A stretch of DNA of 43,248 bases from a virus (taxonomy: Duplodnaviria; Heunggongvirae; Uroviricota; Caudoviricetes), in IMG/VR virus record IMGVR_UViG_3300017788_000010, one strand, 5' to 3'. Of this stretch, positions 2,357 through 25,696 are shown piece by piece. Numbering within the stretch: the first letter of the stretch is position 1; the number at the start of each line of letters is the position of its first letter. Both the position numbers and the translations under genes were made by a program. The notes beneath the pieces were generated by a model that had not been told where the DNA came from, made no database searches, and saw nothing but the letters and a program-made list of their open reading frames with translations.

Positions 2357-4357
2357 ATGATCACTAGACAGCCGCCCGTTTCTACATCTTTGCAGCTATC
2401 GGATTCCTTTGTTCAGCAGTACGCGAATAAGGAGGTTCCCTGGGGGCCGGTAGGTTATGTTGTATTCAAAAGAACGTATGCACGACCGATCAGTATCACT
2501 ACCCACGGGTATACTTATAACGACACAGAGGAGTGGTACCAGACCTGTCAACGCGCTGTAAACTCTGTTCTTACTATAGGAGCCGGCGCGTTCTCTATTA
2601 AAGAGGCGGAGCGTCTATACGACCACATGTTCAACCTTCGGGCCTGCGTCTCAGGTAGAGCCTTGTGGCAGCTTGGAACGGCCACCGTTGCTAAACTAGG
2701 CGGCGCGTCTCTAAACAACTGCTGGGCCCTCACATTCGATAAACTTGATTCGTTCTTATTCTTGTTCGATATGTTGATGCTTGGGGGTGGCGTAGGATAC
2801 AACATACAAAGAGAGTATGTGTATCAGCTGCCGCCGATTAAGTACAACGTGTCAATTACCAGAAAAGACGACCACGATGTCGACTTCATTGTTCCTGATA
2901 ATCGGGAAGGCTGGGTAGAGCTCCTTAAGCGCGTTCTTGATGCGTTTACATACACCGGTAAGTCTTTCACTTATTCGACGAAATGCTTGCGGGGTAAAGG
3001 CGCGGCTATAAAAGGCTTCGGGGGCGTAGCGTCTGGGCCAGAAGATCTGGTCCGTGGTATATCGCAAATCTGTGATGTGTTGCGCTCTCGTATAGATAAG
3101 CGCCTACGCCCCATAGATGTTCTGGATATAAACAATATCATAGGCACAATAGTAGTTGCCGGTAATGTCCGTCGCTCGGCGCAGATTGCCTGTGGCGACC
3201 CGGATGACTTCAACTTCTTGAGAGCCAAGCGTTGGTCTCGCGGGGATATCCCGGGCTGGCGCGCTATGAGTAACAACACCATAGTAGCCAACTCGTTCGA
3301 TAATATACCGGAAGAGTTTTGGAACGGCTACGGACCTAAAGAAGGTGAGCCCTATGGTCTATTCAATCTGAAACTGGCTCAATCAAAAGGCCGCCTAAAA
3401 GATACCCACAGAAAGGATCCCGAAGTAATCGGAACAAACCCCTGTGCTGAGATAACTCTGGCGGATAAAGAGCCCTGCAATCTGACTGAAATATTCCTAC
3501 CCAACATACGCAGCGTTCCCGAGTTCGTTGAGGTAGCGACATTACTGTTCAAAGTAGCTAAGCTTGTAACAACGCTACCGTATCACTGGGAACTTACGCA
3601 AAACATTATATCTAAGAACCGTCGTATTGGCAGCAGCCTAACTGGCGTAGTTCAGGCGAGTCCGGAACTTCTGTCTACGGAGACGCTCGATTATGTCTAT
3701 AAGTCAATAGAGCTGGCGGATGAGGTTTTCTCAGCCGAGCTTACCAAGGTATTTAAGAAGCCTATCCCGACCTCTATAAAGCTCACCACGATTAAGCCTA
3801 GCGGAAGCTTGAGCTTGCTCGCTGGTGTATCTCCTGGGTGCCACCCGGAATATGCGCCGTACTACATCCGCCGCGTGCGTATGTCGGCTGACGATAAGCT
3901 GGTAAGAGCCTGCTCATTTGCCGGCTATCATGTGGAACAAGTCATCAACCTAGACGGCTCAAAAGATCCTAACACGGTTGCAGTATCGTTCCCGATCAAG
4001 GCGCGCAATCCTGATAAAGTGTCCAAGAACTTCACAGCCATAGACCAACTAGAGCTGGTTAAGTTCTTACAAACAAACTGGTCTGATAACTCAGTATCTT
4101 GCACAATCTACTATAAAACTGAAGAACTCCCTGGCATACAGGAGTGGCTCAGAAATAACTTCAATACGGGCGTTAAATCAGTATCTTTCTTACTACACTC
4201 CGATCACGGGTTCATTCAGGCACCGCTTGAAGAAATAACAGCGGATCAGTTCAATAAGATGTCCTCAAAACTAAAGCCTCTAAGCATAGGCTACGATGTC
4301 GGCGGAGACCTACAGAGCTCTGTCGAATGTGAAGGTGGCGCGTGTCCGATAAAGTAG
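2357..4357 (+). CDS. nrdJ: Class II (adenosylcobalamin-dependent) ribonucleoside-triphosphate reductase
   Basis: N-terminal VVFKRTYAR, SGRALWQLG, LNNCW, VAGNVRRSA, catalytic NPCAEI, TTIKPSGSLSLLAG, NSVSCTIYY and C-terminal redox pair CEGGACPIK. Confidence 0.92.
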   Translation: MITRQPPVSTSLQLSDSFVQQYANKEVPWGPVGYVVFKRTYARPISITTHGYTYNDTEEWYQTCQRAVNSVLTIGAGAFSIKEAERLYDHMFNLRACVSGRALWQLGTATVAKLGGASLNNCWALTFDKLDSFLFLFDMLMLGGGVGYNIQREYVYQLPPIKYNVSITRKDDHDVDFIVPDNREGWVELLKRVLDAFTYTGKSFTYSTKCLRGKGAAIKGFGGVASGPEDLVRGISQICDVLRSRIDKRLRPIDVLDINNIIGTIVVAGNVRRSAQIACGDPDDFNFLRAKRWSRGDIPGWRAMSNNTIVANSFDNIPEEFWNGYGPKEGEPYGLFNLKLAQSKGRLKDTHRKDPEVIGTNPCAEITLADKEPCNLTEIFLPNIRSVPEFVEVATLLFKVAKLVTTLPYHWELTQNIISKNRRIGSSLTGVVQASPELLSTETLDYVYKSIELADEVFSAELTKVFKKPIPTSIKLTTIKPSGSLSLLAGVSPGCHPEYAPYYIRRVRMSADDKLVRACSFAGYHVEQVINLDGSKDPNTVAVSFPIKARNPDKVSKNFTAIDQLELVKFLQTNWSDNSVSCTIYYKTEELPGIQEWLRNNFNTGVKSVSFLLHSDHGFIQAPLEEITADQFNKMSSKLKPLSIGYDVGGDLQSSVECEGGACPIK

Positions 4358-9092: not shown

Positions 9093-9120
9093 TAAAATCC
9101 CTCAATATATGGCATAAGAT
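9092..9120 (+). promoter_or_regulatory. Putative phage promoter, copy 1 (A-rich-N13-GGCATAAGAT)
   Basis: AAAA 9094-9097, 13 nt, GGCATAAGAT 9111-9120. The same 10-mer recurs at 24200 and 41749, each time at the start of a + strand module. Confidence 0.55.
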
Positions 9121-10114
9121 GAAAGAAGAAAATCTTCGCTCAATTTTATACGCAATTGATCCTAATATGGACATATCTAGAAGCGGAGACACCCACTTAG
9201 CTGTGAGATGTTTGATGGCCGCAAAAAGACACCGGGACGGGATAGACCGCCGACCGTCTATGACCATAAGCCATGGCGACGGGACCTCTTTCGCGTGGTG
9301 CTGGAGCTGCGGATACAAAAAACCGCTGTCTGATACGTTGTTCGAGCTGGGTAGACATCACGGAGGTATGGCAAGATTGGGGCTAGAGGTACAGCAAGCA
9401 GAGGCCGGTACTATACGGGTGCCTCAGCTAGGGCAGAGACCCGAAACTGCTTCACCCGTAGTAACATATACTGATATACTAAAGGAATTGTATTCAAATC
9501 CGTGGCCGTCAACAGTGGCTCAATTTATGGCCTCAAAAGGCGTGTCTATACGTACTGCTAAGGCGTTTGGCTGCGCGTTTATGCCTAAAGGAAGTGAAAT
9601 ACTACTGCCATCGGGAGACGAGTTCGTAGCCAAATATGATCTAATACTGTTCCCTGTTGTTACTAAGCTAAACGGGGAACTAGAGTGCGTTGGCTGTCTC
9701 GGTCGGTATGTAGACAGCACATATAAAGGGACAAAGTATTTCTTCCCTATGCCAGTAAAATCAACCAACTACTTCTTCGGTGAGCAGATGCTTAACATGA
9801 GGGAGAAGCTACCTATTTTTATAGTAGAGGGTCCGCTAGATATGATGCATTTAGCGGAGCTTGGTTTTAGGTCGTTGGGTAACATGGGGTTAGGAGTGTC
9901 CGATAAAAAAGTAGCGAAGCTACTGGCGTCCAATCCGAAATATGTTATCCTTCTATTAGATCCGGATGCCGCTGGTATCCAAGGTCAACAAAAATACCTA
10001 AATACCCTCAATAAAGCCAATATACAAGCAATATCAAGAAAAACGACTGTTGACCCGAAGTATTTAGACAAAACAACTCTAGAAAACCTTTACATAGGAA
10101 AACAACTCAAATGA
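9119..10114 (+). CDS. dnaG: DNA primase (Zn-binding domain plus TOPRIM)
   Basis: C...H...D..PS...CWSCG Zn-binding pattern, GRYVD, TOPRIM IVEGPLD and LLLDPDAAG. Confidence 0.88.
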   Translation: MKEENLRSILYAIDPNMDISRSGDTHLAVRCLMAAKRHRDGIDRRPSMTISHGDGTSFAWCWSCGYKKPLSDTLFELGRHHGGMARLGLEVQQAEAGTIRVPQLGQRPETASPVVTYTDILKELYSNPWPSTVAQFMASKGVSIRTAKAFGCAFMPKGSEILLPSGDEFVAKYDLILFPVVTKLNGELECVGCLGRYVDSTYKGTKYFFPMPVKSTNYFFGEQMLNMREKLPIFIVEGPLDMMHLAELGFRSLGNMGLGVSDKKVAKLLASNPKYVILLLDPDAAGIQGQQKYLNTLNKANIQAISRKTTVDPKYLDKTTLENLYIGKQLK

Positions 10115-11301: not shown

Positions 11302-12987
11302 GTGCACGCTCTAAAAGACATCCTTCGAGAAATCGAGGCGTTTAAGGAGTTTGCGTTTGATACAGAGGCCGAGTCAATAACAAGTGATCCTAGTGATGCT
11401 ATAAATCCTAGACTAGCTAGGATCACACATGTTTCCTTAGCCACTAAAAATCTAAGCGGGTGTTTCAAGGCGACTGACGACATACGACAAGAAATAGTCG
11501 CCTTACTAAAAAATCCCGCCCTTACCTGTATCATTCACAACTGGCCTTATGACGGCGCATTATTGCACCATAATGGTTGGATAAAGTACGAAGACATTGC
11601 TACAACCAAGGTAGACACCATGACACTATCTTGGTTAATAGATGAAGAGAACGCGCACGGTTTAAAATCCCTGGTGTTCCAGCATTTTAGCTATAAGATG
11701 GTTAGCTACGAAGAAGCTACCAAAACATCTCCTACAATTCAAGGTATTGCCTTGTGCAATAATGTGATAAACAGCGCTCCAACAATTATGAGTGAGTGGA
11801 GTAAGCGCCGTCCATATCCAGATTTTGACTCACCTGTGATGAGCAAAATAAAAATCAGAAAAGACCTCATGGCTAAGGGGTTAGATAAGAAGGCTGTAAA
11901 AGCCGAGGCTGATCGACTGTTAGGCGCAGAGGAACTAGAGAGATATAAAGCGTTTTCCTTAGCACAATGCGGTAAAGCCCAAGCATTACTTACTCAGCTA
12001 ATACCACGCGCTGAGAAAGAGTTCCGAATGTACGCTCGGGACGACGCTAAGATGCTTATGCGACTATACCACAAGCTGTTACCAAAGGTGAAAGAAGCTA
12101 AGCTATACGGCTGGTTCTTAGTCGAGACAAATATTTTAGACTCCGCTATAAAGATGCACCTATCGGGAGTGTATATAAATGAAGAGAAGGTGACCGAGCT
12201 CCGCACTTTCATGGAGCCGCTCATACACGAATTCGAGGCAAATGTCTTTAACACAGCTAAAGAACAGTTTAATATCAATAGCTCTGACGATATACGCAAA
12301 GTATTATTCGATAATCTGGGCGCTATACCGCCTGTTTTCCGTATAGATCGTACGGGACGTAGATGGCCTAAACTGACTACAGAAGGCGATAACTACTGTA
12401 AACAGAACGGAATACAGCTTGATCTGCGGTCCTCGGACCCGTTGCCTGATATAATCAGGGCCAAGTACCTGTCGTCGGACCAGAAGGTGCTGGAGAGGGT
12501 AAACCATCCACTGGCTCGCGCTATTCTAGACTACAGAGCAGTTACTAAACTAGACAAAACATACATACAGAGCATGCTGGACATCCTGGCCACAGGAAGC
12601 CACTTTATCCACACTAACTTCCGACCTCTTGGAACAGATACCGGTCGTTGGTCGTCAAACACCCCTAATCTACAAAACATACCGTCAAGAGCTAAGGACT
12701 CTCAATACGATCCTCGCATAAGAACACTAGGATCTAAAATACGCCAAATCTTCACAGCTAAGCCTGCAGACGAGTTGGCGCCTGAGGGGTACTCTCTGAT
12801 CATAGCAGACCAAAGCCAGATCGAACTCCGACTCTTAGCGCACTATTGTGGGGACGCTAGATTGGCTGAGGTGTATAACCAGCACATAGATTTTGATGAC
12901 ATGCGCTTCTACACAGGAGACATTCACTCATCAACATCAAAAGCTCTGGACGTTCCTAGAAAATACGCAAAAGCTATTAACTTCGGT
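11302..12987 (+). CDS. polA: Family A DNA polymerase, exon 1 (join 11302..12987,13211..13981; about 818 aa spliced)
   Basis: 3'-5' exonuclease motifs FAFDTE, IIHNWPYD, DTMTLSWLIDE and YARDDA. Polymerase TGRWSSNTPNLQNIP, motif A IIADQSQIELRLLAH, and motif B start RKYAKAINFG ending exactly at 12987 (codon 562). Confidence 0.92.
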
Positions 12988-13210
12988 AGAGTAATCCACT
13001 TAAGCCGAAACAAAACTCACTCAATTCAGTGGAACCCCTCTGGGGCAATACTGAGCGAATCGTCCAGGAATGGATGAAGCGTGCAACGACTCACAGCGCA
13101 GACAGTCAGCCTGCGGCCTGGGTACGCGAAGGCGTAAATACGGTGAGACAAGGTACCATTAAGTATCTTGTAAGGTATAGTCTAGCCCCATGGTAACACG
13201 GGACAAGCTG
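12988..13210 (+). ncRNA. Group I self-splicing intron (IA2-like: P7.1 and P7.2 present), 223 nt, no ORF
   Basis: The 5' exon ends in U and the intron ends in G. P1 TTCGGT(12982-87)/GCCGAA(13004-09); P3 13016-21/13142-47; P4 13026-31/13049-54; P5 CCCC/GGGG; P6a GTCCA-GGAA-TGGAT; P7 GACT(13088-91)/AGTC(13179-82); P8 13148-56/13163-71; P9 with GTAA loop; P9.0 AGC/GCT. Removal restores the frame NFG|FNYGMG. Confidence 0.93.
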
Positions 13211-13981
13211 TTTAATTATGGAATGGGAGCTGAGAAGTTCTCTAGAGAAGCCAAGCTCTTCACAGAGACTGGCGATTATGATATCACAAAAGCGACTAAA
13301 TTTAGAGACGGTTTCTTCAGAACGTACCCTGGCATTGCTATGGCTTTGGAACGTATGAAGACCCGTTGGTATGACGGTCATAAAGACATCAGCACTATAT
13401 GCGGGTGGACTAGAAAGTTCTATCGACACGAGAAGGTGTCTCCTGGCACCATGCTTAATGCGCGTATTCAAGGATCTAGCGCTAACCTACTCAAAGCATG
13501 TATCTTCATCATAAACAAGTACGTATTGCCGAAGTTCCCAGGCACCCGCCTGGTTCTGCAGGTACACGACGAGCTAGTTGTGGAGACGCCTACCCGCTTT
13601 GCTAAGCAGGTGGGGTTATTAGTTAAATACGTTATGGAATACCCGTGGTTTACTGTTAACGTACCTCTATTAGCCAGCGCTAAGATATGCAAAACATGGT
13701 GGCAAAATTCTGATGAAGCCACACCAGATATAGGATACACGTATGCAGAAATAGCTGGGGTGCCTAGAGTGTTCAATGAAAGTAACTGGACCGAGTGGGT
13801 CGAAGTACAAGAAAAGCATCCTAAAGACATAAAGAACAAGAGCGCCGCAGCGGCCCTCTCTAAAGAACAGATCGCTTACTGCAAGACCATTATTCCGGAC
13901 AACGGGCCGTTATTTAAAACTAGGTCAGGTAAAAGAATCGTGTCTAGAGAAGAAGAACTAAAAGCACGACAGAGCCTATAA
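13211..13981 (+). CDS. polA: Family A DNA polymerase, exon 2
   Basis: Resumes motif B (FNYGMGAEKF), then FFRTYPGI, LNARIQGSSANLLK and motif C LQVHDELV. Confidence 0.92.
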   Translation, partial: FNYGMGAEKFSREAKLFTETGDYDITKATKFRDGFFRTYPGIAMALERMKTRWYDGHKDISTICGWTRKFYRHEKVSPGTMLNARIQGSSANLLKACIFIINKYVLPKFPGTRLVLQVHDELVVETPTRFAKQVGLLVKYVMEYPWFTVNVPLLASAKICKTWWQNSDEATPDIGYTYAEIAGVPRVFNESNWTEWVEVQEKHPKDIKNKSAAAALSKEQIAYCKTIIPDNGPLFKTRSGKRIVSREEELKARQSL

Positions 13982-14427: not shown

Positions 14428-15214
14428 AGTAACAAATAAAGCAGTAACCGCCCCCACCAGACCGGGCCCTACAATAGACAGCATATTGCTATTTGCTCGT
14501 AGATCTGCGTCTGCGGATAAGGTGTCTGGTAAAATTCGCGGAGGGTACGCTACTCTGTGGGGCAGCAAGGTGGCTCGGCATGCTGCTGCTAAAAAGGGGC
14601 GCATACCTGTACCTTCAGTAACTATAGATATCATAAATGAGAAAAATAGACGTGTAGAACTGTTTCCCAACTTCGAGTGGTTGGGCGCCGTCATAGTATC
14701 TATCGACCCCGTCAGCGGTGAGTACGGGATGGAGGGGGTGGCGTTGCTGCCTGACGGCAGCTTACTGCTACCTAGACAGCCGGTGGTGTCGAAAACCTTT
14801 CAATGGAAGCCGCTTCCTAAAAACATCCCACTTTCAGAAGAGTGTGTGGGTAAATTCAACTTACTGGGCGCCACGCTAAAGAGTAAGACCTTATTTAATG
14901 ATATACGGACAGAGGCGCTCAATATACTGAACAACGTGCCTGAGACGCCGGCCTGGCTTGTTAATCAACTAGCAGGCGGCGTATTTAATCTCAAGGTGCC
15001 GTATCTCGCCGCGGTAATGCAGCAGCCTGTGTCCCAAGAAAAGAGCAGAAAACTTGGCAACATATTTTTGTTCACCCCTGCTAGGTTCAATAGGTTGTTC
15101 TGTAACGGCGCCTATAAGAACGCGGTAATGTCTGTACCATATCTATTGAAAGGACCTAAAACCCCGATCGAGGATGTACGTCCGCTACTCAATAACCCAT
15201 TTGCTAGTGTATGA
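14387..15214 (+). CDS. Hypothetical protein (basic N-terminus)
   Basis: 275-aa ORF, translationally coupled to the helicase (ATGA overlap at 15211). Confidence 0.65.
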   Translation: MTTKVKKAIKTNTKVTNKAVTAPTRPGPTIDSILLFARRSASADKVSGKIRGGYATLWGSKVARHAAAKKGRIPVPSVTIDIINEKNRRVELFPNFEWLGAVIVSIDPVSGEYGMEGVALLPDGSLLLPRQPVVSKTFQWKPLPKNIPLSEECVGKFNLLGATLKSKTLFNDIRTEALNILNNVPETPAWLVNQLAGGVFNLKVPYLAAVMQQPVSQEKSRKLGNIFLFTPARFNRLFCNGAYKNAVMSVPYLLKGPKTPIEDVRPLLNNPFASV

Positions 15215-16683
15215 GCAGAGGGTTTATCCGTATATCTGAAGAGGTGGCCAGCGTCATTGACAAGAATAGACGCGCGGTTTCCGAATCTCGTGATTACTCC
15301 GTGTTAAAAGCTGAGAGACCTGGGGTATTCCTATGCCCCAAGTTTCTCACAGATAACTCAGCAGAAAGCCTGATTGTTAAAAAAATTAAACCAGGCAAAA
15401 GCTATCCTACTAAATTCACCTTAAAGCCTCATCAAAAAGAGCCCGTGCAGATAACCGTTAAAACACTGGTCAAAAATACGGGCGCCTTGCTTCAAGCACC
15501 ATGTGGTAGCGGTAAAACTGTTATGGCGCTCAGTGTTGCTGCATCACTAGGACTCACTAGTGTTATTATATTAGTGGATCAAGTTAACATAGCTGTGCAG
15601 TGGCAAAGTAGTATCTGGGCCGTGCTTGGGCTGCGATCAGAAATATTCTGCGCTGATTACAAACAGGTTACTGATAAAGCTGTGCATGCTGACGGGTTCA
15701 GAATAATCGTTGCACAGAGTTTGATGAGACAGAACTTTGTAAACAATCCTATTGCCTGTGATCTATTAATAGTAGACGAGGCCCACGTATTCTCAGCTCC
15801 GGCCTTTCTATCTTCAGTATTCAATGTAGCGTTCACCTATTCACTAGCACTGACCGCTACCCCGGATAGAAAAGACGCGTTGGAATGGGTATTTCAAGCG
15901 GTGCTTGGTAGAGAGATTATCGAAGCCACTAAACCCAGTAACAACGCTCGAATCAATATAGTTAACATAAAGCTATCAACGCAGATCAAGACCTCGGACT
16001 ACACGATGTGGTGGTGCCGACCCAAAAAAAAGAGCACCTGGTTAGCGGCCTGCGCTTCGTGTGATCTATATGACCTGTATCCAAAATGTGGCGGAGCTGC
16101 GTTGTACTCATCAGGTAAACCACGCATAATGATGGCGGGTCTTATTAAGCGAGTAGTGTTCGATCCAGATTACGTAGCGTTCACTAAAGAAACACTCGCG
16201 TCCTTTCACAAAAATAAGAGGCAAGCCCTCATATTCAGTCACTTGAAAGAGCATCTGCGGTTCTTATATTCTTTTGCGGTCGAGGCATTCGGAGAAGACG
16301 CCTGTGGCCTTTATATCGGCGGCGCGTTAGCAGAGGACAAGAAAAACAGGCAGGATGCTATGACCAAGCCGCTAACATTCTGTACATACAGCATCGCTAA
16401 TAAAGCCCTCGATGTTCCGCATAAAGACACGGCCTTTTTCACAAGCCCGATATCCGATATTCGGCAGGCTAAGGGAAGAGTTGAGCGCGATGTTCCTGGA
16501 AAAAACAGGCCTGTTATAATAGATCCTGTTATAGCGGATATAGGCATGTTTAGAGGCATGGCAAACAAAAGACAGAAAACATACAAGGACACCAATTGCG
16601 CAATAACCTATGTTAACCGCGACTATTCTAGTAACCAAAAATCAGGACAACACAACCCAGACTATACTAAGAAAGGTAGTTAA
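15211..16683 (+). CDS. Superfamily 2 DEAH helicase (UvsW/A18-like)
   Basis: Q motif LKPHQ, Walker A QAPCGSGKT, LLIVDEAH, motif III ALTATPDRKD and motif VI QAKGRVER. Confidence 0.88.
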   Translation: MSRGFIRISEEVASVIDKNRRAVSESRDYSVLKAERPGVFLCPKFLTDNSAESLIVKKIKPGKSYPTKFTLKPHQKEPVQITVKTLVKNTGALLQAPCGSGKTVMALSVAASLGLTSVIILVDQVNIAVQWQSSIWAVLGLRSEIFCADYKQVTDKAVHADGFRIIVAQSLMRQNFVNNPIACDLLIVDEAHVFSAPAFLSSVFNVAFTYSLALTATPDRKDALEWVFQAVLGREIIEATKPSNNARINIVNIKLSTQIKTSDYTMWWCRPKKKSTWLAACASCDLYDLYPKCGGAALYSSGKPRIMMAGLIKRVVFDPDYVAFTKETLASFHKNKRQALIFSHLKEHLRFLYSFAVEAFGEDACGLYIGGALAEDKKNRQDAMTKPLTFCTYSIANKALDVPHKDTAFFTSPISDIRQAKGRVERDVPGKNRPVIIDPVIADIGMFRGMANKRQKTYKDTNCAITYVNRDYSSNQKSGQHNPDYTKKGS

Positions 16684-16684
16684 A

Positions 16685-16939
16685 ATGGAAGCACCGCAAA
16701 ACGCACCCAGCAATCAACTAGTCACGTTTCGTATAGGCATGAAGATCCCAGAGACATATGGGAAGTTCTCCTCTACCGAAGTGTCTATCGAACTCACCGG
16801 CCCTGCGGATATCGACAAATTCGAGGACCACATCAATCACTATGTGGACCGGGTAATGAAGTATGAGCGGGAAGTGATAAATAGCATAGCTGTCGCTTCT
16901 GGTCAGAAGCCTTATTTCGGAGACACTAATAATGGTTAA
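16685..16939 (+). CDS. Hypothetical protein
   Basis: ATG 16685 after AAAGGT is preferred over the listed start 16610. Overlaps the recA start. Confidence 0.6.
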   Translation: MEAPQNAPSNQLVTFRIGMKIPETYGKFSSTEVSIELTGPADIDKFEDHINHYVDRVMKYEREVINSIAVASGQKPYFGDTNNG

Positions 16940-18431
16940 GAAACCTAAAGAAGAAAAGCCGAGTAATACCGGTGTTGTAGAAAAGCAATCCTTAGGAGAC
17001 GCTTTGGTTGCCGCCAGCATCGCCGTGCAAAAACAAGGTGGAGAACTTAGAGCCACGGCAGACACGACGGAGTTCAACAAGAAGCTGCTCTATACAGGTC
17101 TTCTTGAGGTAGATCTGAACCTGCGTATAGGGCTTCAAAGTAAATCTATGTTACTGGGTGAACCGTCTGCCGGTAAATCCCTGTTCATGTATATGATGAT
17201 AGCAGCCATACAAAGGACCTGCAGAGTCTGCCAAACACCCATCATTCCGTTCATTAACGACAAAACAGGAGAGACGCGCACTACCTGTAGGTGCGGTAAG
17301 AATGACGGAATGGTTGCTGTTCTCATAGATGCCGAGGGTGACTTCGACCCTCTATGGGCGCAGGCGTGGGGGGTACAGCTTGGGCATGGTGGTGAAAACG
17401 TGGACGCGTATCGGGAAATAGTCCCGGGCGTCAGGGTTTCGCCTAACGCCAAGTTTGTAATAGTCCGTTTGGACAATATTGACCAGATGGCTCCGGTTGT
17501 TCGACAGCTAGTATCTAAAGGTGCTGTTGACTTCGTGGGTATCGACGGTGTCATATCGTTAGAGACCAAGGAAGCGTCTGAAGGTAAAAACCAGCCTGGT
17601 ACTAAAGCTCGTGCGATTAGCCAGCTGGTGTCTGCTATAAACTCAGGCTCCGGCACGTGTTGGATTAGGTACAAAACCGCGCCCACTATGATCATATCTA
17701 ATCAATACCGTAACCGTATCGGAGGCATAAGCCCTCTGGCTGACCCCCGTGCGGCGGGCGGCGGGTATGCGCTAGCGCACCTAGCATTCCAAACGCTTCA
17801 CATAAGAACTTCCTACTCAGACGATACTGGCGGCTTCAAAGGCGTCAATGCCGAAGGCGAAGTCACCATAAAATCCAAGAAAGATAAGTTCAGTGGAAGC
17901 ACTGGCGCTGAATCGCAACATAGAGTCTATCTCCAAAAGATGTCGGTTAAGCGGGTGGAGTACAACACCGGCGATACCGACGAGGGGGCACGTCTGTGGA
18001 GCATCATCAGCGAACTAGGCGCCGCGGGAGACAAGCGCTGGTTCTATAAAGATACCAAAGGCTATCACGTTCTAGGCAGGACCTTTACCACTGCCAAAGA
18101 CATCCAGCTTTTCCTAGCAAGACCCGACATCGGTTTCCAGCTTCGGCTGCCTATCTTTTGTCTAAAACTAAATCCCGTGCTGCGCAATCATTTAAACGTT
18201 GAGCAGTACAATTATAATCCTTTCAAAGACGAGCCTATTCTGGAGCTCATAAATGAAGCGAAAAATGTCCTTGGAAAGCCTGTTCAGCCGAATGAGCCAG
18301 GAACAGACGCAAGAGGAGAAGAGGCTTCTATCGAAAATATCCTCGGCGGTCTCGACTCCTTCCTCGACGACGCCGCCAGAGATGTTGACGCTACAAGCGA
18401 TCCAGAACCGCAACCAGTCATTGAAGAGTGA
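16932..18431 (+). CDS. recA: RecA/UvsX-like recombinase with Cys-rich insertion
   Basis: Walker A GEPSAGKS, LIDAEGDFDPLWAQAWGV, Walker B VDFVGIDG, KARAISQ, IISNQYR and GGYALAH. Confidence 0.85.
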   Translation: MVKKPKEEKPSNTGVVEKQSLGDALVAASIAVQKQGGELRATADTTEFNKKLLYTGLLEVDLNLRIGLQSKSMLLGEPSAGKSLFMYMMIAAIQRTCRVCQTPIIPFINDKTGETRTTCRCGKNDGMVAVLIDAEGDFDPLWAQAWGVQLGHGGENVDAYREIVPGVRVSPNAKFVIVRLDNIDQMAPVVRQLVSKGAVDFVGIDGVISLETKEASEGKNQPGTKARAISQLVSAINSGSGTCWIRYKTAPTMIISNQYRNRIGGISPLADPRAAGGGYALAHLAFQTLHIRTSYSDDTGGFKGVNAEGEVTIKSKKDKFSGSTGAESQHRVYLQKMSVKRVEYNTGDTDEGARLWSIISELGAAGDKRWFYKDTKGYHVLGRTFTTAKDIQLFLARPDIGFQLRLPIFCLKLNPVLRNHLNVEQYNYNPFKDEPILELINEAKNVLGKPVQPNEPGTDARGEEASIENILGGLDSFLDDAARDVDATSDPEPQPVIEE

Positions 18432-21950: not shown

Positions 21951-22601
21951 GTGAAGGTTCTAGCATTTGATCCGGCCACTATACTGGTGGGGGTAGCGTG
22001 TTTGGAGTCCGTAAACGGAACAATACGTCTACTCGATTGCGGTAAAGTAGACCTAGGGGACCAAAATCCCCTAGGTTTTAGGCTGGTTCAAATGCGACAA
22101 ATTGCGCTAGATTTGATTAAAAAACACAACCCAGACATAATCGCTATCGAATACGTCCGCTTCAACAGAGGCAGCGTAGCTAATTTTGATAGTCTAAGTA
22201 AGGTACTGCTTATGACTGGCGTATTATATGAAGCGGCTGCCGGGCACAGGCTACCTCTGGCACTACTAAGCGCTTCTCAGGTTAGAGGCCTTATAGGGAA
22301 CAAAGAGAAGGCTTCCGGTAAAAAGAAAAAAGTTACAAAATCAATAGTAGAGACCCGCTTCAAATCTGATATACTTGCTATCAGAGGAGCGCTGTTTAAG
22401 GCCTCCGATTTAGATATAACTGACGCTATTGCCCTTGGATGGGTATCCTTCTCTACCATGGAAAAAGACCTAATTAAGTACGGGGTCATTAAATGCCCTG
22501 CTTGTGGATCGCAATCCGTTCATGAAATACGACGTGAGGCGACATCTACATACAAATGCGATACTTGCGGGAAAGAATTCGATGAGACTACGCCGCGGTA
22601 A
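21951..22601 (+). CDS. ruvC: RuvC-family Holliday junction resolvase with C-terminal Zn ribbon
   Basis: MKVLAFDPAT (D), IAIEYV (E) and ITDAIALG (D), followed by CPACGS...YKCDTCGKEF. Confidence 0.82.
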   Translation: MKVLAFDPATILVGVACLESVNGTIRLLDCGKVDLGDQNPLGFRLVQMRQIALDLIKKHNPDIIAIEYVRFNRGSVANFDSLSKVLLMTGVLYEAAAGHRLPLALLSASQVRGLIGNKEKASGKKKKVTKSIVETRFKSDILAIRGALFKASDLDITDAIALGWVSFSTMEKDLIKYGVIKCPACGSQSVHEIRREATSTYKCDTCGKEFDETTPR

Positions 22602-23004: not shown

Positions 23005-23372
23005 ATCTGTCAAAGACATTGGCGGGCGCAGAAGGCTTAGGGATACAGCCGGTAACTTTTACCAACATCCCTCTAGCCCTTCCAGAAAGCCCGCTAATGC
23101 TTGTGGCGCACGGTATAGATGCTACTAGAGGTTCTTCTGTTAAACTGATATATCAGTTCAAAAACGTGTCTGTAAAAGACATGTACCGTATGGGAAAGGT
23201 GCTAAACTTCCTAGTGAAGGAACTGGGCTATAGCACATCCTATGCGTCAGCCGGACCTAGCCCCGTCTACAGAAATCAATGGGACTTTATTTACTGCGAC
23301 GTGCCGCTTATAAACGTCCCCTTCGTTCAGGAACTCGTCTTAAAAAGAATAAAGGCTGAGTACAGTTTATGA
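22992..23372 (+). CDS. Hypothetical protein
   Basis: 126-aa ORF with RBS GAGG, coupled to the sigma gene. Confidence 0.6.
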   Translation: MASVDLSKTLAGAEGLGIQPVTFTNIPLALPESPLMLVAHGIDATRGSSVKLIYQFKNVSVKDMYRMGKVLNFLVKELGYSTSYASAGPSPVYRNQWDFIYCDVPLINVPFVQELVLKRIKAEYSL

Positions 23373-24169
23373 CGTCAGAATTTCAGCAGTATTACGAATC
23401 TTTCAGGCTAAAAAAGCCGTACACGGCTAAAGCAGAAAGAACGATGCTGCGGAAGATAAAGGCAGGAAACGTCTCTGCCAAACAAGAATTCATTGAACAC
23501 AACATGCGGCTTGTTTTAAGCTGCGTGTTGCGTTTCGTTAAATCAACTGATCCTAAAGCCATGGATCTGGTATCTGCTGGTACTCTAGGCCTTATAAAAG
23601 CTATTGATGATTTCAAGATATCAAAGACAAATAGATTCTCTACCTACGCAGTCTGGTGGATCAAAGCCAGGATACGAAAAGAACTCGGGCACATAAAGCC
23701 GCGCATACATCAGAACAAGCTGATGCACGCTCAGTACAAGACAGCGGCAGAGCTTTTGAGAAGCGTATTGCACCGAGACCCCGCACAAGAAGAAGTCTTT
23801 TCAGAACTAGGTTGGTCCAACGCGTCCATAGCTAAGTTTTCGATAGAGTCTGAAAGACAGATAGTGCCCATAGAGACAATCTCCGCCGAGATAGAAGACG
23901 GCAGTGCTGCAGACAGCGCGCTCACGCTGGCAGCAGAAGACGCTGTGCTGGATCCTGTATTCATGTCGGAGGATTGTGTTAGATTACACAGCGCACTGAA
24001 TCAACTGGCGCCGGTTCTCGAAGACATCATCAGACGGCACTACGGGCTCGGTTTCGTCGACACAGCGACCTACGATGAGCTGGCTAGTTTCTACGGGTTT
24101 ACCAGAGAACGTGTACGTCAATTAGAGAACGAAGGTCTTAGAAAGCTGTGGATGCTTTTAAACAACTGA
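23369..24169 (+). CDS. Phage-encoded sigma-70-family RNA polymerase sigma factor
   Basis: Region 1.2-like N-terminus; region 2 EFIEHNMRLV...DLVSAGTLGLIKAIDDF...RFSTYAVWWI; region 4 IIRRHYGLG...TYDELASFYGFTRERVRQLE. Confidence 0.9.
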   Translation: MTSEFQQYYESFRLKKPYTAKAERTMLRKIKAGNVSAKQEFIEHNMRLVLSCVLRFVKSTDPKAMDLVSAGTLGLIKAIDDFKISKTNRFSTYAVWWIKARIRKELGHIKPRIHQNKLMHAQYKTAAELLRSVLHRDPAQEEVFSELGWSNASIAKFSIESERQIVPIETISAEIEDGSAADSALTLAAEDAVLDPVFMSEDCVRLHSALNQLAPVLEDIIRRHYGLGFVDTATYDELASFYGFTRERVRQLENEGLRKLWMLLNN

Positions 24170-24215: not shown

Positions 24216-24240
24216 GTAAGGCACGTCGCCTTGCTTTTTT
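24216..24240 (+). terminator. Hairpin plus U6, terminator-like
   Basis: GTAAGGC-ACGTC-GCCTTGC followed by TTTTTT. Confidence 0.5.
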
Positions 24241-24263
24241 CCACAATTCTTACGGGTGATCTG

Positions 24264-24656
24264 GTGTCTAATACTCAGTACGAGCTAACAGACGAGCACC
24301 GCGCTCAGATTAAGCCATGGACAGATAAGTGGGTGAGAAACGCCATGAGCACGGCGCCTATCACCTCCGACGACAGAATCGCCATGGTCGAGGCTGTTCG
24401 CGGTATGTATCGCGCCGCCGGGATGGAACCTCCCCCGGACAATCGCATCATTTTTGTTGATTCACCTATTGAAGCTTCCTTCCTAGCTGGCATGGCTGCG
24501 TGGCGGTGGTTCATCCACACCGAGCCCGAAAAAGCTAAGCCGCTGGTCGATGCCTTCGCCCCTACCTGGGACGCTCCGGCTCCTGATAACGACTATGATC
24601 GTACTATTCTTGAACGATTCATGGCGCGTCTGCGCAAAATCTGTCCTCCGGAATAG
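24264..24656 (+). CDS. DUF6745-like protein, N-terminal piece
   Basis: GTG 24264 with RBS GGGTGA. YELTDEHRAQIKPWTDKWVRNAMST...AVRGMYRAAG..PP...IIFVDSP is the typical N-terminal domain of phage DUF6745-containing proteins (recalled). Confidence 0.65.
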   Translation: MSNTQYELTDEHRAQIKPWTDKWVRNAMSTAPITSDDRIAMVEAVRGMYRAAGMEPPPDNRIIFVDSPIEASFLAGMAAWRWFIHTEPEKAKPLVDAFAPTWDAPAPDNDYDRTILERFMARLRKICPPE

Positions 24657-24684
24657 CTAGGCGTATCCACACTTTTACATTATA

Positions 24685-24903
24685 ATGTTTAACAGAGGCG
24701 ATCGGGACTCTTTTGATACTCGATACGGGATAAGCGTCTATTGGATAGACAAGCTCCTGGTATCCGCAGCATCTGAGCGGCTTACGCATGCCATCGGCGC
24801 GCACCTGCTACACCGCGTAATAGAGAGCGGAACGATCGGCGCGCAGAATATAAACTCAGAGAATATTTTAAGCATGGATGAGATCGATAATCCGCAGTCA
24901 TAA
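24685..24903 (+). CDS. Short ORF in the gap of the split DUF6745-like gene (possibly vestigial)
   Basis: 72 aa, AT-richer, no clear RBS. Contains an 11-nt in-frame direct repeat ATCGGCGCGCA (24793, 24835) encoding IGA(H/Q). Confidence 0.3.
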   Translation: MFNRGDRDSFDTRYGISVYWIDKLLVSAASERLTHAIGAHLLHRVIESGTIGAQNINSENILSMDEIDNPQS

Positions 24904-24958
24904 ATAAATACCTTACTCACACAAAAACCGTCGATAGTTACCTTCAGGGACGCAAACG

Positions 24959-25696
24959 ATGCCCGCTCCCCTAGCACATCCTAAAAAGTCACGTTGGTTC
25001 GACTCTTCTATTTATGCTAAAATTGTCAAGGCGATAGGATCCGATACAGGGATCTTGTGCGTCAGACGCGCCTACGGCTTCCGTAATGGAGGCAACCAGT
25101 GGTCTGGGTGGGTGGCTTATCTGTCGTTCTTCAGACATATAGTAAAACTACCTATGGATTATAGCAGATGGGAACACTACGAGCGCGCCGCTGAGTTAGG
25201 CGGTCCTCGTTATATGCACACCCAGTTCTGCATCATATCTGCTCGCCCAACCAAACTGGTCGTGGATGCAGACAATCGACCGCATTGTGAAGACGGCCCC
25301 TTCTGCGAATGGGCTGACGGAACAAGGCTGTGGTCATGGCACGGGGTCCGCGTTCCGGGGTGGGTTATCGAGCACCCGGAGCTGATCACGGCTGACGACG
25401 TGACTGCCGAACAAAACGAAGAGGTGCGCAGAGTTCTTGTCGAGCGCATGACCCCTGAGAAATTCCTGGCGGAATCCAAGGCAGAGGTCATCGACATGGA
25501 CTTCGAGGGGACCGCAACCGGGTCCGCTGCGAGAGCGCTGCTTCGGGACAAAACCGGAGGGGTTTGGCTTGTGGGTACGGACGGTTCGACGAAACGTACG
25601 TACTACATGCCTGTAACGCCCACTATTAAGACCTGCCGCGCTGCGCATGAGGAGCGGTGCGGTTTCGATGAACGCCTCATTCAACACAAGTCCTAG
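24959..25696 (+). CDS. DUF6745-like protein, C-terminal piece
   Basis: GGNQWSGWVAYLSFFR...FCIISARP...DADNRPHCEDGPFCEWADG..LWSWHGVRVP...EQNEEVRRVLVER...GTDGST.RTYYMPV. Possible RBS AGGGA at 24946-50. Confidence 0.75.
   Translation: MPAPLAHPKKSRWFDSSIYAKIVKAIGSDTGILCVRRAYGFRNGGNQWSGWVAYLSFFRHIVKLPMDYSRWEHYERAAELGGPRYMHTQFCIISARPTKLVVDADNRPHCEDGPFCEWADGTRLWSWHGVRVPGWVIEHPELITADDVTAEQNEEVRRVLVERMTPEKFLAESKAEVIDMDFEGTATGSAARALLRDKTGGVWLVGTDGSTKRTYYMPVTPTIKTCRAAHEERCGFDERLIQHKS

Follow-up and report, generated by a model that had tools for sequence, protein, structure and literature searches.

Group I introns have been described at three sites in the family A DNA polymerase genes of phages, corresponding to Escherichia coli positions 674 (SPO1, SP82, Bastille and Pf-WMP3), 676 (phiL7) and 881 (PhiI and W31) (PMC3428280). 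Their P7.1 and P7.2 helices are joined by the trinucleotide G-U-A, the criterion for subgroup IA2, and the Pf-WMP3 intron, an IA2 member, has all of the helices except P2 (PMC3428280). Splitting of the gene can be frequent, as in the Bastillevirinae, where nearly half of the polymerase genes are interrupted, some of them by three introns (PMC11878797). Short introns averaging approximately 206 nt and lying, like the one described here, in essential genes including the polymerase are known from the Jug jumbo phages (PMC12880540), a different phage group that we liken to ours by size and host genes alone.

Here, we analysed a stretch of 43,248 nt (the window) from the genome of a large, uncultured phage, IMGVR_UViG_3300017788_000010, in which a family A DNA polymerase gene (polA) is split by 223 nt at positions 12988–13210. 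We put the probability at roughly nine in ten that this segment is an ORF-less, IA2-like phage group I intron in the polA pre-mRNA, and that it probably removes itself. This reading is the best supported because a covariance model, covariation within a family of phage introns, intron-less homologues and two further lineages all bear on it. It is a known kind of phage element, at a site outside the published list of PMC3428280 and of a size typical of its family. The gene belongs to a replication module (908–23372) whose genes share its strand, and the features of the locus are collected in Table 1.

Table 1. Features of the polA locus, the proposed intron and the neighbouring genes (positions are those of the window)
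Feature	Position	Strand	Details
DnaB-like helicase	908–2254	same as polA	
Class II-type ribonucleotide reductase	2357–4357	same as polA	
Toprim primase-like protein	9119–10114	same as polA	
polA exon 1	11302–12987	+	562 codons; 3'-5' exonuclease domain and N-terminal part of polymerase domain; ends KAINFG, motif B
Proposed group I intron	12988–13210	+	223 nt, no ORF, IA2-like, no P2
P1	12982–12987 / 13004–13009	+	exon UUCGGU with internal guide GCCGAA; 6 bp; ends at U12987·G13004, the 5' splice site
L1 loop		+	16 nt; contains UUAA 13000–13003
P10 (possible)	13000–13003 / 13212–13215	+	4 bp, UUAA with exon 2
P1–P3 linker	13010–13015	+	6 nt, ACAAAA; no P2
P3	13016–13021 / 13142–13147	+	CUCACU with GGUGAG
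P4-P5-P6 domain	13026–13082	+	P4, P5, P6, P6a
P4	13026–13031 / 13049–13054	+	
P5	13035–13038 / 13042–13045	+	
P6	13055–13057 / 13080–13082	+	
P6a	13060–13066 / 13071–13077	+	GGAA loop
In-frame TGA	13075–13077	+	29 codons into intron; stops translation of unspliced mRNA; end of ORF 11302–13077
P7	13088–13091 / 13179–13182	+	GACU with AGUC; pseudoknot with P3
P7.1	13094–13120	+	two-part: 13094–13095 / 13119–13120 and 13097–13101 / 13111–13115
GUA	13122–13124	+	joins P7.1 to P7.2
P7.2	13125–13127 / 13132–13134	+	GAAG loop
P8	13150–13156 / 13163–13169	+	AAGGUAC with GUAUCUU
P9.0	13184–13185 / 13208–13209	+	AG with CU
P9	13187–13192 / 13197–13202	+	GUAA loop
Terminal G (omega G)	13210	+	end fixed independently by intron-less homologues
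polA exon 2	13211–13981	+	256 codons and stop; begins FNYGMG; remainder of motif B, plus motif C
ResIII/DEAD helicase	15211–16683	same as polA	
RecA-like protein	16932–18431	same as polA	
RuvC-like nuclease	21951–22601	same as polA	
Sigma factor	23369–24169	same as polA	after RuvC-like nuclease

The first-pass annotation of this DNA, made from the letters alone, described polA as two broken ORFs and proposed that excision of the insert restores KAINFG-FNYGMG, a claim that was borne out by the ORFs, by domain continuity and by uninterrupted relatives. The region consists of two ORFs in different frames, 11302–13077 (591 aa) and 13190–13981 (263 aa). Exon 1 matches Pfam families PF01612 and PF00476 (DNA_pol_A), the latter over profile positions 57–216, and exon 2 matches PF00476 over positions 219–379, so that the profile is continuous over the proposed junction. 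Deleting the insert joins AAC TTC GGT to TTT AAT TAT GGA ATG in frame (KAINFG to FNYGMG). As group I introns require a U before the 5' splice site and a G as the last intron nucleotide, one boundary pair alone fits, with A12988 as the first base of the insert and G13210 as the last.

The same junction is given exactly by homologues without the insert, a comparison that the annotation had itself recommended. With exon 1 as the query, ten full-length uninterrupted relatives (801–831 aa, 39–55 % identical) were recovered from approximately 5.8 billion proteins, and identity across all 562 exon 1 residues is 39–55 % for homologues P0003–P0013. The motif NFGFNYGM is unbroken in all 13 uninterrupted relatives (P0003–P0007, P0009–P0013 and the IMG/VR loci L006–L008; 34–55 % identity); the sequences of P0003, P0004 and P0005 read AKNVNFGFNYGMREEKF without a break over the junction, and L006–L008 are likewise uninterrupted there. 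A further 80 more distant metagenome relatives, out of 80, are unbroken at this point. Other searches for related loci were negative: blastn of the whole locus against a phage genome collection gave no match, and a single-protein scan of IMG/VR gave no relative.

The RNA structure of the insert is that expected of a group I core. Unconstrained folding of 12975–13225 gave a minimum free energy of −80.6 kcal/mol (z = −3.2 against shuffles) and recovered P1, P3, P4, P5, P6, P6a, P7.1, P7.2 and P8. Checked one by one, every helix pairs at its coordinates, and this covers all of the elements that had earlier been paired by eye: P1 with its U-G pair, P3 to P9, P7.1, P7.2, the GNRA loop of P9, P9.0 and the terminal G. 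P7 has just four Watson–Crick pairs, with C13092 opposite U13178 where the family has an A-U pair; from the group I consensus, G13088-C13182 is presumed to be the guanosine-binding pair. The earlier assignment to the phage IA2 type also held, as P7.1 and P7.2 lie between P7 and the 3' strand of P3 and are joined by G-U-A, with the proviso that phage 'IA2' introns are a heterogeneous set (PMC11878797). There is no endonuclease ORF within the intron; the sole internal ORF (55 aa, 13029–13196) has no Pfam match.

Covariance-model searches recognized the insert, with a difference between the general and the family-specific model. The Rfam group I model RF00028 has an end-to-end match at 12966–13203 with a score of 41.6 bits (E 2.6e-9 in a 501-nt slice), below its gathering cut-off of 50 bits, and Rfam gave no match in the whole 43-kb window, either at gathering thresholds or at E<=1. 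The RF00028 cut-off is conservative for such introns, since the two polymerase introns of Aeromonas phage vB_AhaP_PT2 (L001) also fall under it, at 39 and 36 bits. We built a second covariance model, R1, from 19 IMG/VR phage introns, with the intron of the window left out. R1 gave a single match in the 43-kb window, at 13008–13203 on the plus strand (80.8 bits, E 9.5e-19), which spans model positions 1–175 of 175. As the seeds of R1 score 122–165 bits, the intron of the window is a divergent member of the family.

This family was reached through its shared core. A blastn search of phage genomes with the intron returned short matches to P3–P5 in Aeromonas phage PT2, Shewanella phage 1/40 and Bacillus phage BMBtp13, each of which lies inside a split gene; Rfam confirmed the inserts of these genes as group I introns, with scores of up to 97 bits. 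The shared-core pattern AAUUCAGUGGA...CAAUACUGAGC...GUGCAACGA occurs at 57 IMG/VR loci, which represent 20 distinct introns, every one with no P2, a short A-rich P1–P3 linker and the P7.1-GUA-P7.2 arrangement. The same core sequence is found in the window, the terminase gene of Shewanella phage 1/40 (KJ018211), the tape-measure gene of Bacillus phage BMBtp13 (KX190832) and the IMG/VR loci; these compact introns share with ours the absence of P2, the linker, the P7.1-GUA-P7.2 arrangement and a GNRA-type L9. Their host genes are different (terminase, tape measure and others), and the intron of the window has a larger, two-part P7.1, a 16-nt L1 loop and a lower R1 score. Two IMG/VR loci are heavily intron-riddled: L058 (IMGVR_UViG_3300019867_000001) carries five family introns within a few kilobases and L011 (IMGVR_UViG_3300025655_000559) six, with a terminase among the affected genes of L011. 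A 17-mer from the intron matched only L004 and L005, which were rejected as chance coding matches, and longer intron patterns found no match in genome contigs or metagenome contigs.

Covariation was assessed on 39 R1 matches, aligned with the covariance model because MAFFT misaligned the P7.1–P8 region of the intron of the window; P6 and the P7 pseudoknot were added by hand. Standard pairs occupy 95.8 % of the alignment cells, as against 32–46 % when partners are slid by one to three columns, with pairing counts for the nested helices inflated by the fitting of the alignment to the model. Compensatory change is present in 33 of the 40 pairs, and none of 500 shuffles reached the observed values. 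Such changes affect five of the six P3 pairs and all six P9 pairs of the family. P6 and P7, which lie outside the model, covary too; in two members, for example, the P7 pairing GACUA/UAGUC of the family is replaced by GAUCA/UGAUC. A 2-bp hairpin that RNAalifold placed in J6/7 was judged spurious and replaced by the P7 pseudoknot.

The first-pass annotation called the intron a very compact ribozyme, which is fair in relation to textbook introns (223 nt, no P2 and a 6-nt linker); among related phage introns, however, it is ordinary. R1 matches have intron cores of approximately 155–225 nt, the Jug introns average approximately 206 nt and P2-less IA2 introns have been described in phage polymerases, so neither the size nor the absence of P2 is unusual. 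The Azoarcus pre-tRNA-Ile intron is approximately 205 nt long. This natural group I ribozyme, for which PMC3984707 cites structure papers, is comparably minimal in size, but belongs to subgroup IC3, has a P2, lacks P7.1 and P7.2 and resides in a tRNA gene.

To place the insertion site in the protein, we aligned P0004 to the Klenow fragment, in which adding 324 to the chain index yields the E. coli numbers, as verified on D705. The P0004 sequence RKLAKNVNFGFNYGM aligns with Klenow RRSAKAINFGLIYGM, and F762 corresponds to the F of NFG. The intron lies in phase 0 between the codons for G763 and L764; it had first been placed directly after the F762 equivalent, which is one codon too early. On this alignment, 763|764 differs from all three sites of PMC3428280, and its unlisted status is relative to that paper and to the relatives checked here; polymerase introns of the Bastillevirinae may also occupy it. 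The introns of PMC3428280 and that of the window have in common the gene family, the GUA junction of P7.1 and P7.2 and a location in the highly conserved, functionally critical fingers/palm stretch. They differ in that the published introns contain HNH homing endonuclease ORFs and are approximately 600–900 nt long, whereas ours has no ORF and 223 nt and sits at G763|L764.

The closest neighbour by position is the first polymerase intron of vB_AhaP_PT2 (OM716005; L001:1394–2071), a T7-like podovirus with a polymerase that is only a distant relative of the one in the window. Aligned to T7 gene 5, this intron is a phase 2 insertion in the codon for T7 F524 (E. coli I760) and lies 10 nt upstream of our site; T7 Y526 is the F762 equivalent, and F524 lies two residues earlier. 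Whether the site in the window is new, a question left to a search by the first reading of this DNA, can thus be answered in part: it is absent from the sites of PMC3428280, but a related intron is present 10 nt upstream in the Aeromonas phage. Both introns interrupt the motif B helix and their P3–P6 cores are alike (83 % over 47 nt), and the Aeromonas intron matches R1 at 40–84 bits. It differs in being 678 nt long, and the annotated homing endonuclease of that phage is in its second intron, which follows T7 H653 and which we take to be at site 881. By these alignments, related introns have entered the motif B helix on at least two occasions and at different points. The L001 polymerase gene as a whole contains two introns of approximately 600–680 nt (1394–2071 and approximately 2483–3077); in the database record, its middle exon (approximately 2072–2482) is without a CDS and the annotation of the first CDS extends into the intron.

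Two database proteins extend the distribution of the intron itself. P0002 (611 aa, 88 % identical) and P0008 (614 aa, 51 % identical) continue after NFG with nearly the read-through peptide of the window, and from this translated read-through their phages seem to carry the same intron at the same site. Back-translation of the tails over 147 nt requires at least 8 nucleotide differences for P0002 and at least 14 for P0008; by the back-translated peptide, the P0008 intron is at most approximately 90 % identical to that of the window over the first 147 nt. Loops or linkers account for about half of these forced changes, and each forced change at a paired position still allows a standard pair, including an unambiguous replacement of C-G by U-A at the P6a pair 13064–13073 in P0008. 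A search with exon 2 among short proteins returned just the fragment of the window and that of the P0002 phage, which indicates that the split is rare, and in the 84 loci (427 kb) that surround polymerase relatives R1 detected no member of the family.

A maximum-likelihood tree of exon 1 places the window in one clade with P0002, and P0008 with the nine intron-less proteins (support 91/92). The intron must, therefore, have been lost at least twice or have moved between lineages. Two points speak for movement, namely that the P0008 intron resembles ours (at most approximately 90 % of nucleotides) far more closely than do its exons (51 % of the protein), and that even the 16-nt L1 loop has no forced change; ribozyme constraint could account for part of this similarity. 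Sideways transfer between phages with 51 %-identical polymerases, of an intron with no endonuclease of its own, is nevertheless a tentative proposal, to which we give rather less than an even chance. If it took place, the intron might have been carried by a free-standing endonuclease that cuts the conserved sequence AACTTCGG|TTYAAYTAYGG, or by reverse splicing. The first route would be a case of collaborative homing, in which ORF-less introns are moved by a free-standing endonuclease (PMC3984707). Relatives without the intron show good conservation of the target DNA (AACTTCGGN|TTYAAYTAYGG), and a homing endonuclease domain was not found in the 30 other ORFs tested in the 43-kb window. Were transfer true, the motif B helix would join the homing targets of family A polymerases as one not listed before.

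Three other explanations of the split gene were weighed against a self-removing intron. Split replicative polymerases occur in other phages, and the two ORFs could be translated separately, one polypeptide ending at the TGA at 13075 and the other starting at the ATG at 13190, with the RNA between them a decayed, non-splicing relic. That ATG does open a 263-aa ORF in the frame of exon 2. However, there is no clear Shine–Dalgarno sequence just before it, and the exon 2 ORF of the P0002 phage is called from the M of FNYGMG, a different start, so that no start is conserved. The break would also fall inside a helix of conserved motif B residues, a poor cut point for a protein, and the retention of all catalytic-core helices, with substitutions in two other lineages that preserve pairing, is unexpected for a relic. 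We regard separate translation as very improbable.

Marginally less credible still is that polA is a pseudogene, inactivated by a mobile RNA element that no longer splices. The Rfam score below the cut-off would suit such an element, and splicing of the intron of the window is something that we infer. Against this, the two exons are intact and conserved over their whole length, the 43-kb window (of a genome of roughly 145 kb) contains no second family A polymerase ORF and the arrangement persists in three lineages with structure-preserving changes. The bypass in T4 gene 60 spans 50 nt. Joining of the ORFs by an intein, translational bypassing or a frameshift has nothing in its favour beyond the fact that the gene is split and can be dismissed almost entirely: in-frame stops in the insert rule out an intein, the 223-nt gap far exceeds the T4 bypass, and none of these mechanisms predicts that the insert would match group I models.

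The group I intron reading suggests the conventional splicing pathway of two transesterification steps, of which catalysis, the guanosine-binding role of P7 and any mobility are points that we infer from sequence. Free guanosine would dock at the G13088-C13182 pair of P7 and attack the bond after U12987, which would be held in P1 by its U·G wobble with G13004. The 3' OH of exon 1, once released, would then attack the bond after G13210, placed by P9.0 and P10. Ligation at TTCGGT|TTTAAT would yield the message for an 818-residue polymerase with motif B intact (KAINFGFNYGMG), and unspliced mRNA would give a product truncated at the TGA at 13075.

Nothing here overturns current understanding, and the practical value of the result is in annotation. 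As the intron scores under the Rfam cut-off, the only polymerase gene seen in the window would be annotated as two fragments, and the family-specific model R1 detects the intron cleanly. For phage family A polymerases, G763|L764 represents a fourth insertion point beside the three of PMC3428280. Together with the Aeromonas phage case, it is a second intron in the helix that binds the nucleotide, in keeping with the rule that elements of this kind target the most conserved DNA. This natural, IA2-like ribozyme of 223 nt, which lacks P2, could also serve as a convenient small construct for folding studies, and it is not the smallest known.

A few observations were made in passing. Downstream of the sigma factor gene, a DUF6745 match (profile 34–189) is confined to the ORF at 24959–25696, and the ORF upstream of it (24231–24656) has no Pfam match; window positions 24231–25696 contain no R1 or Rfam intron match. 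Two metagenome polA relatives, L137 and L139, have in-frame TGA codons at conserved glycines near the ends of their matches (NF*VVY*ISGF* and NF*VIYG), which suggests that TGA is read as glycine in the organisms or phages concerned. Lastly, the polymerase relative P0124 (405 aa, from a 66-kb contig) has an uninterrupted motif B and begins with a sequence that resembles an intein C-terminal block (SFINHN followed by SSGPNLQ), which suggests that an intein or split intein lies immediately ahead of the PNLQNIPS motif.
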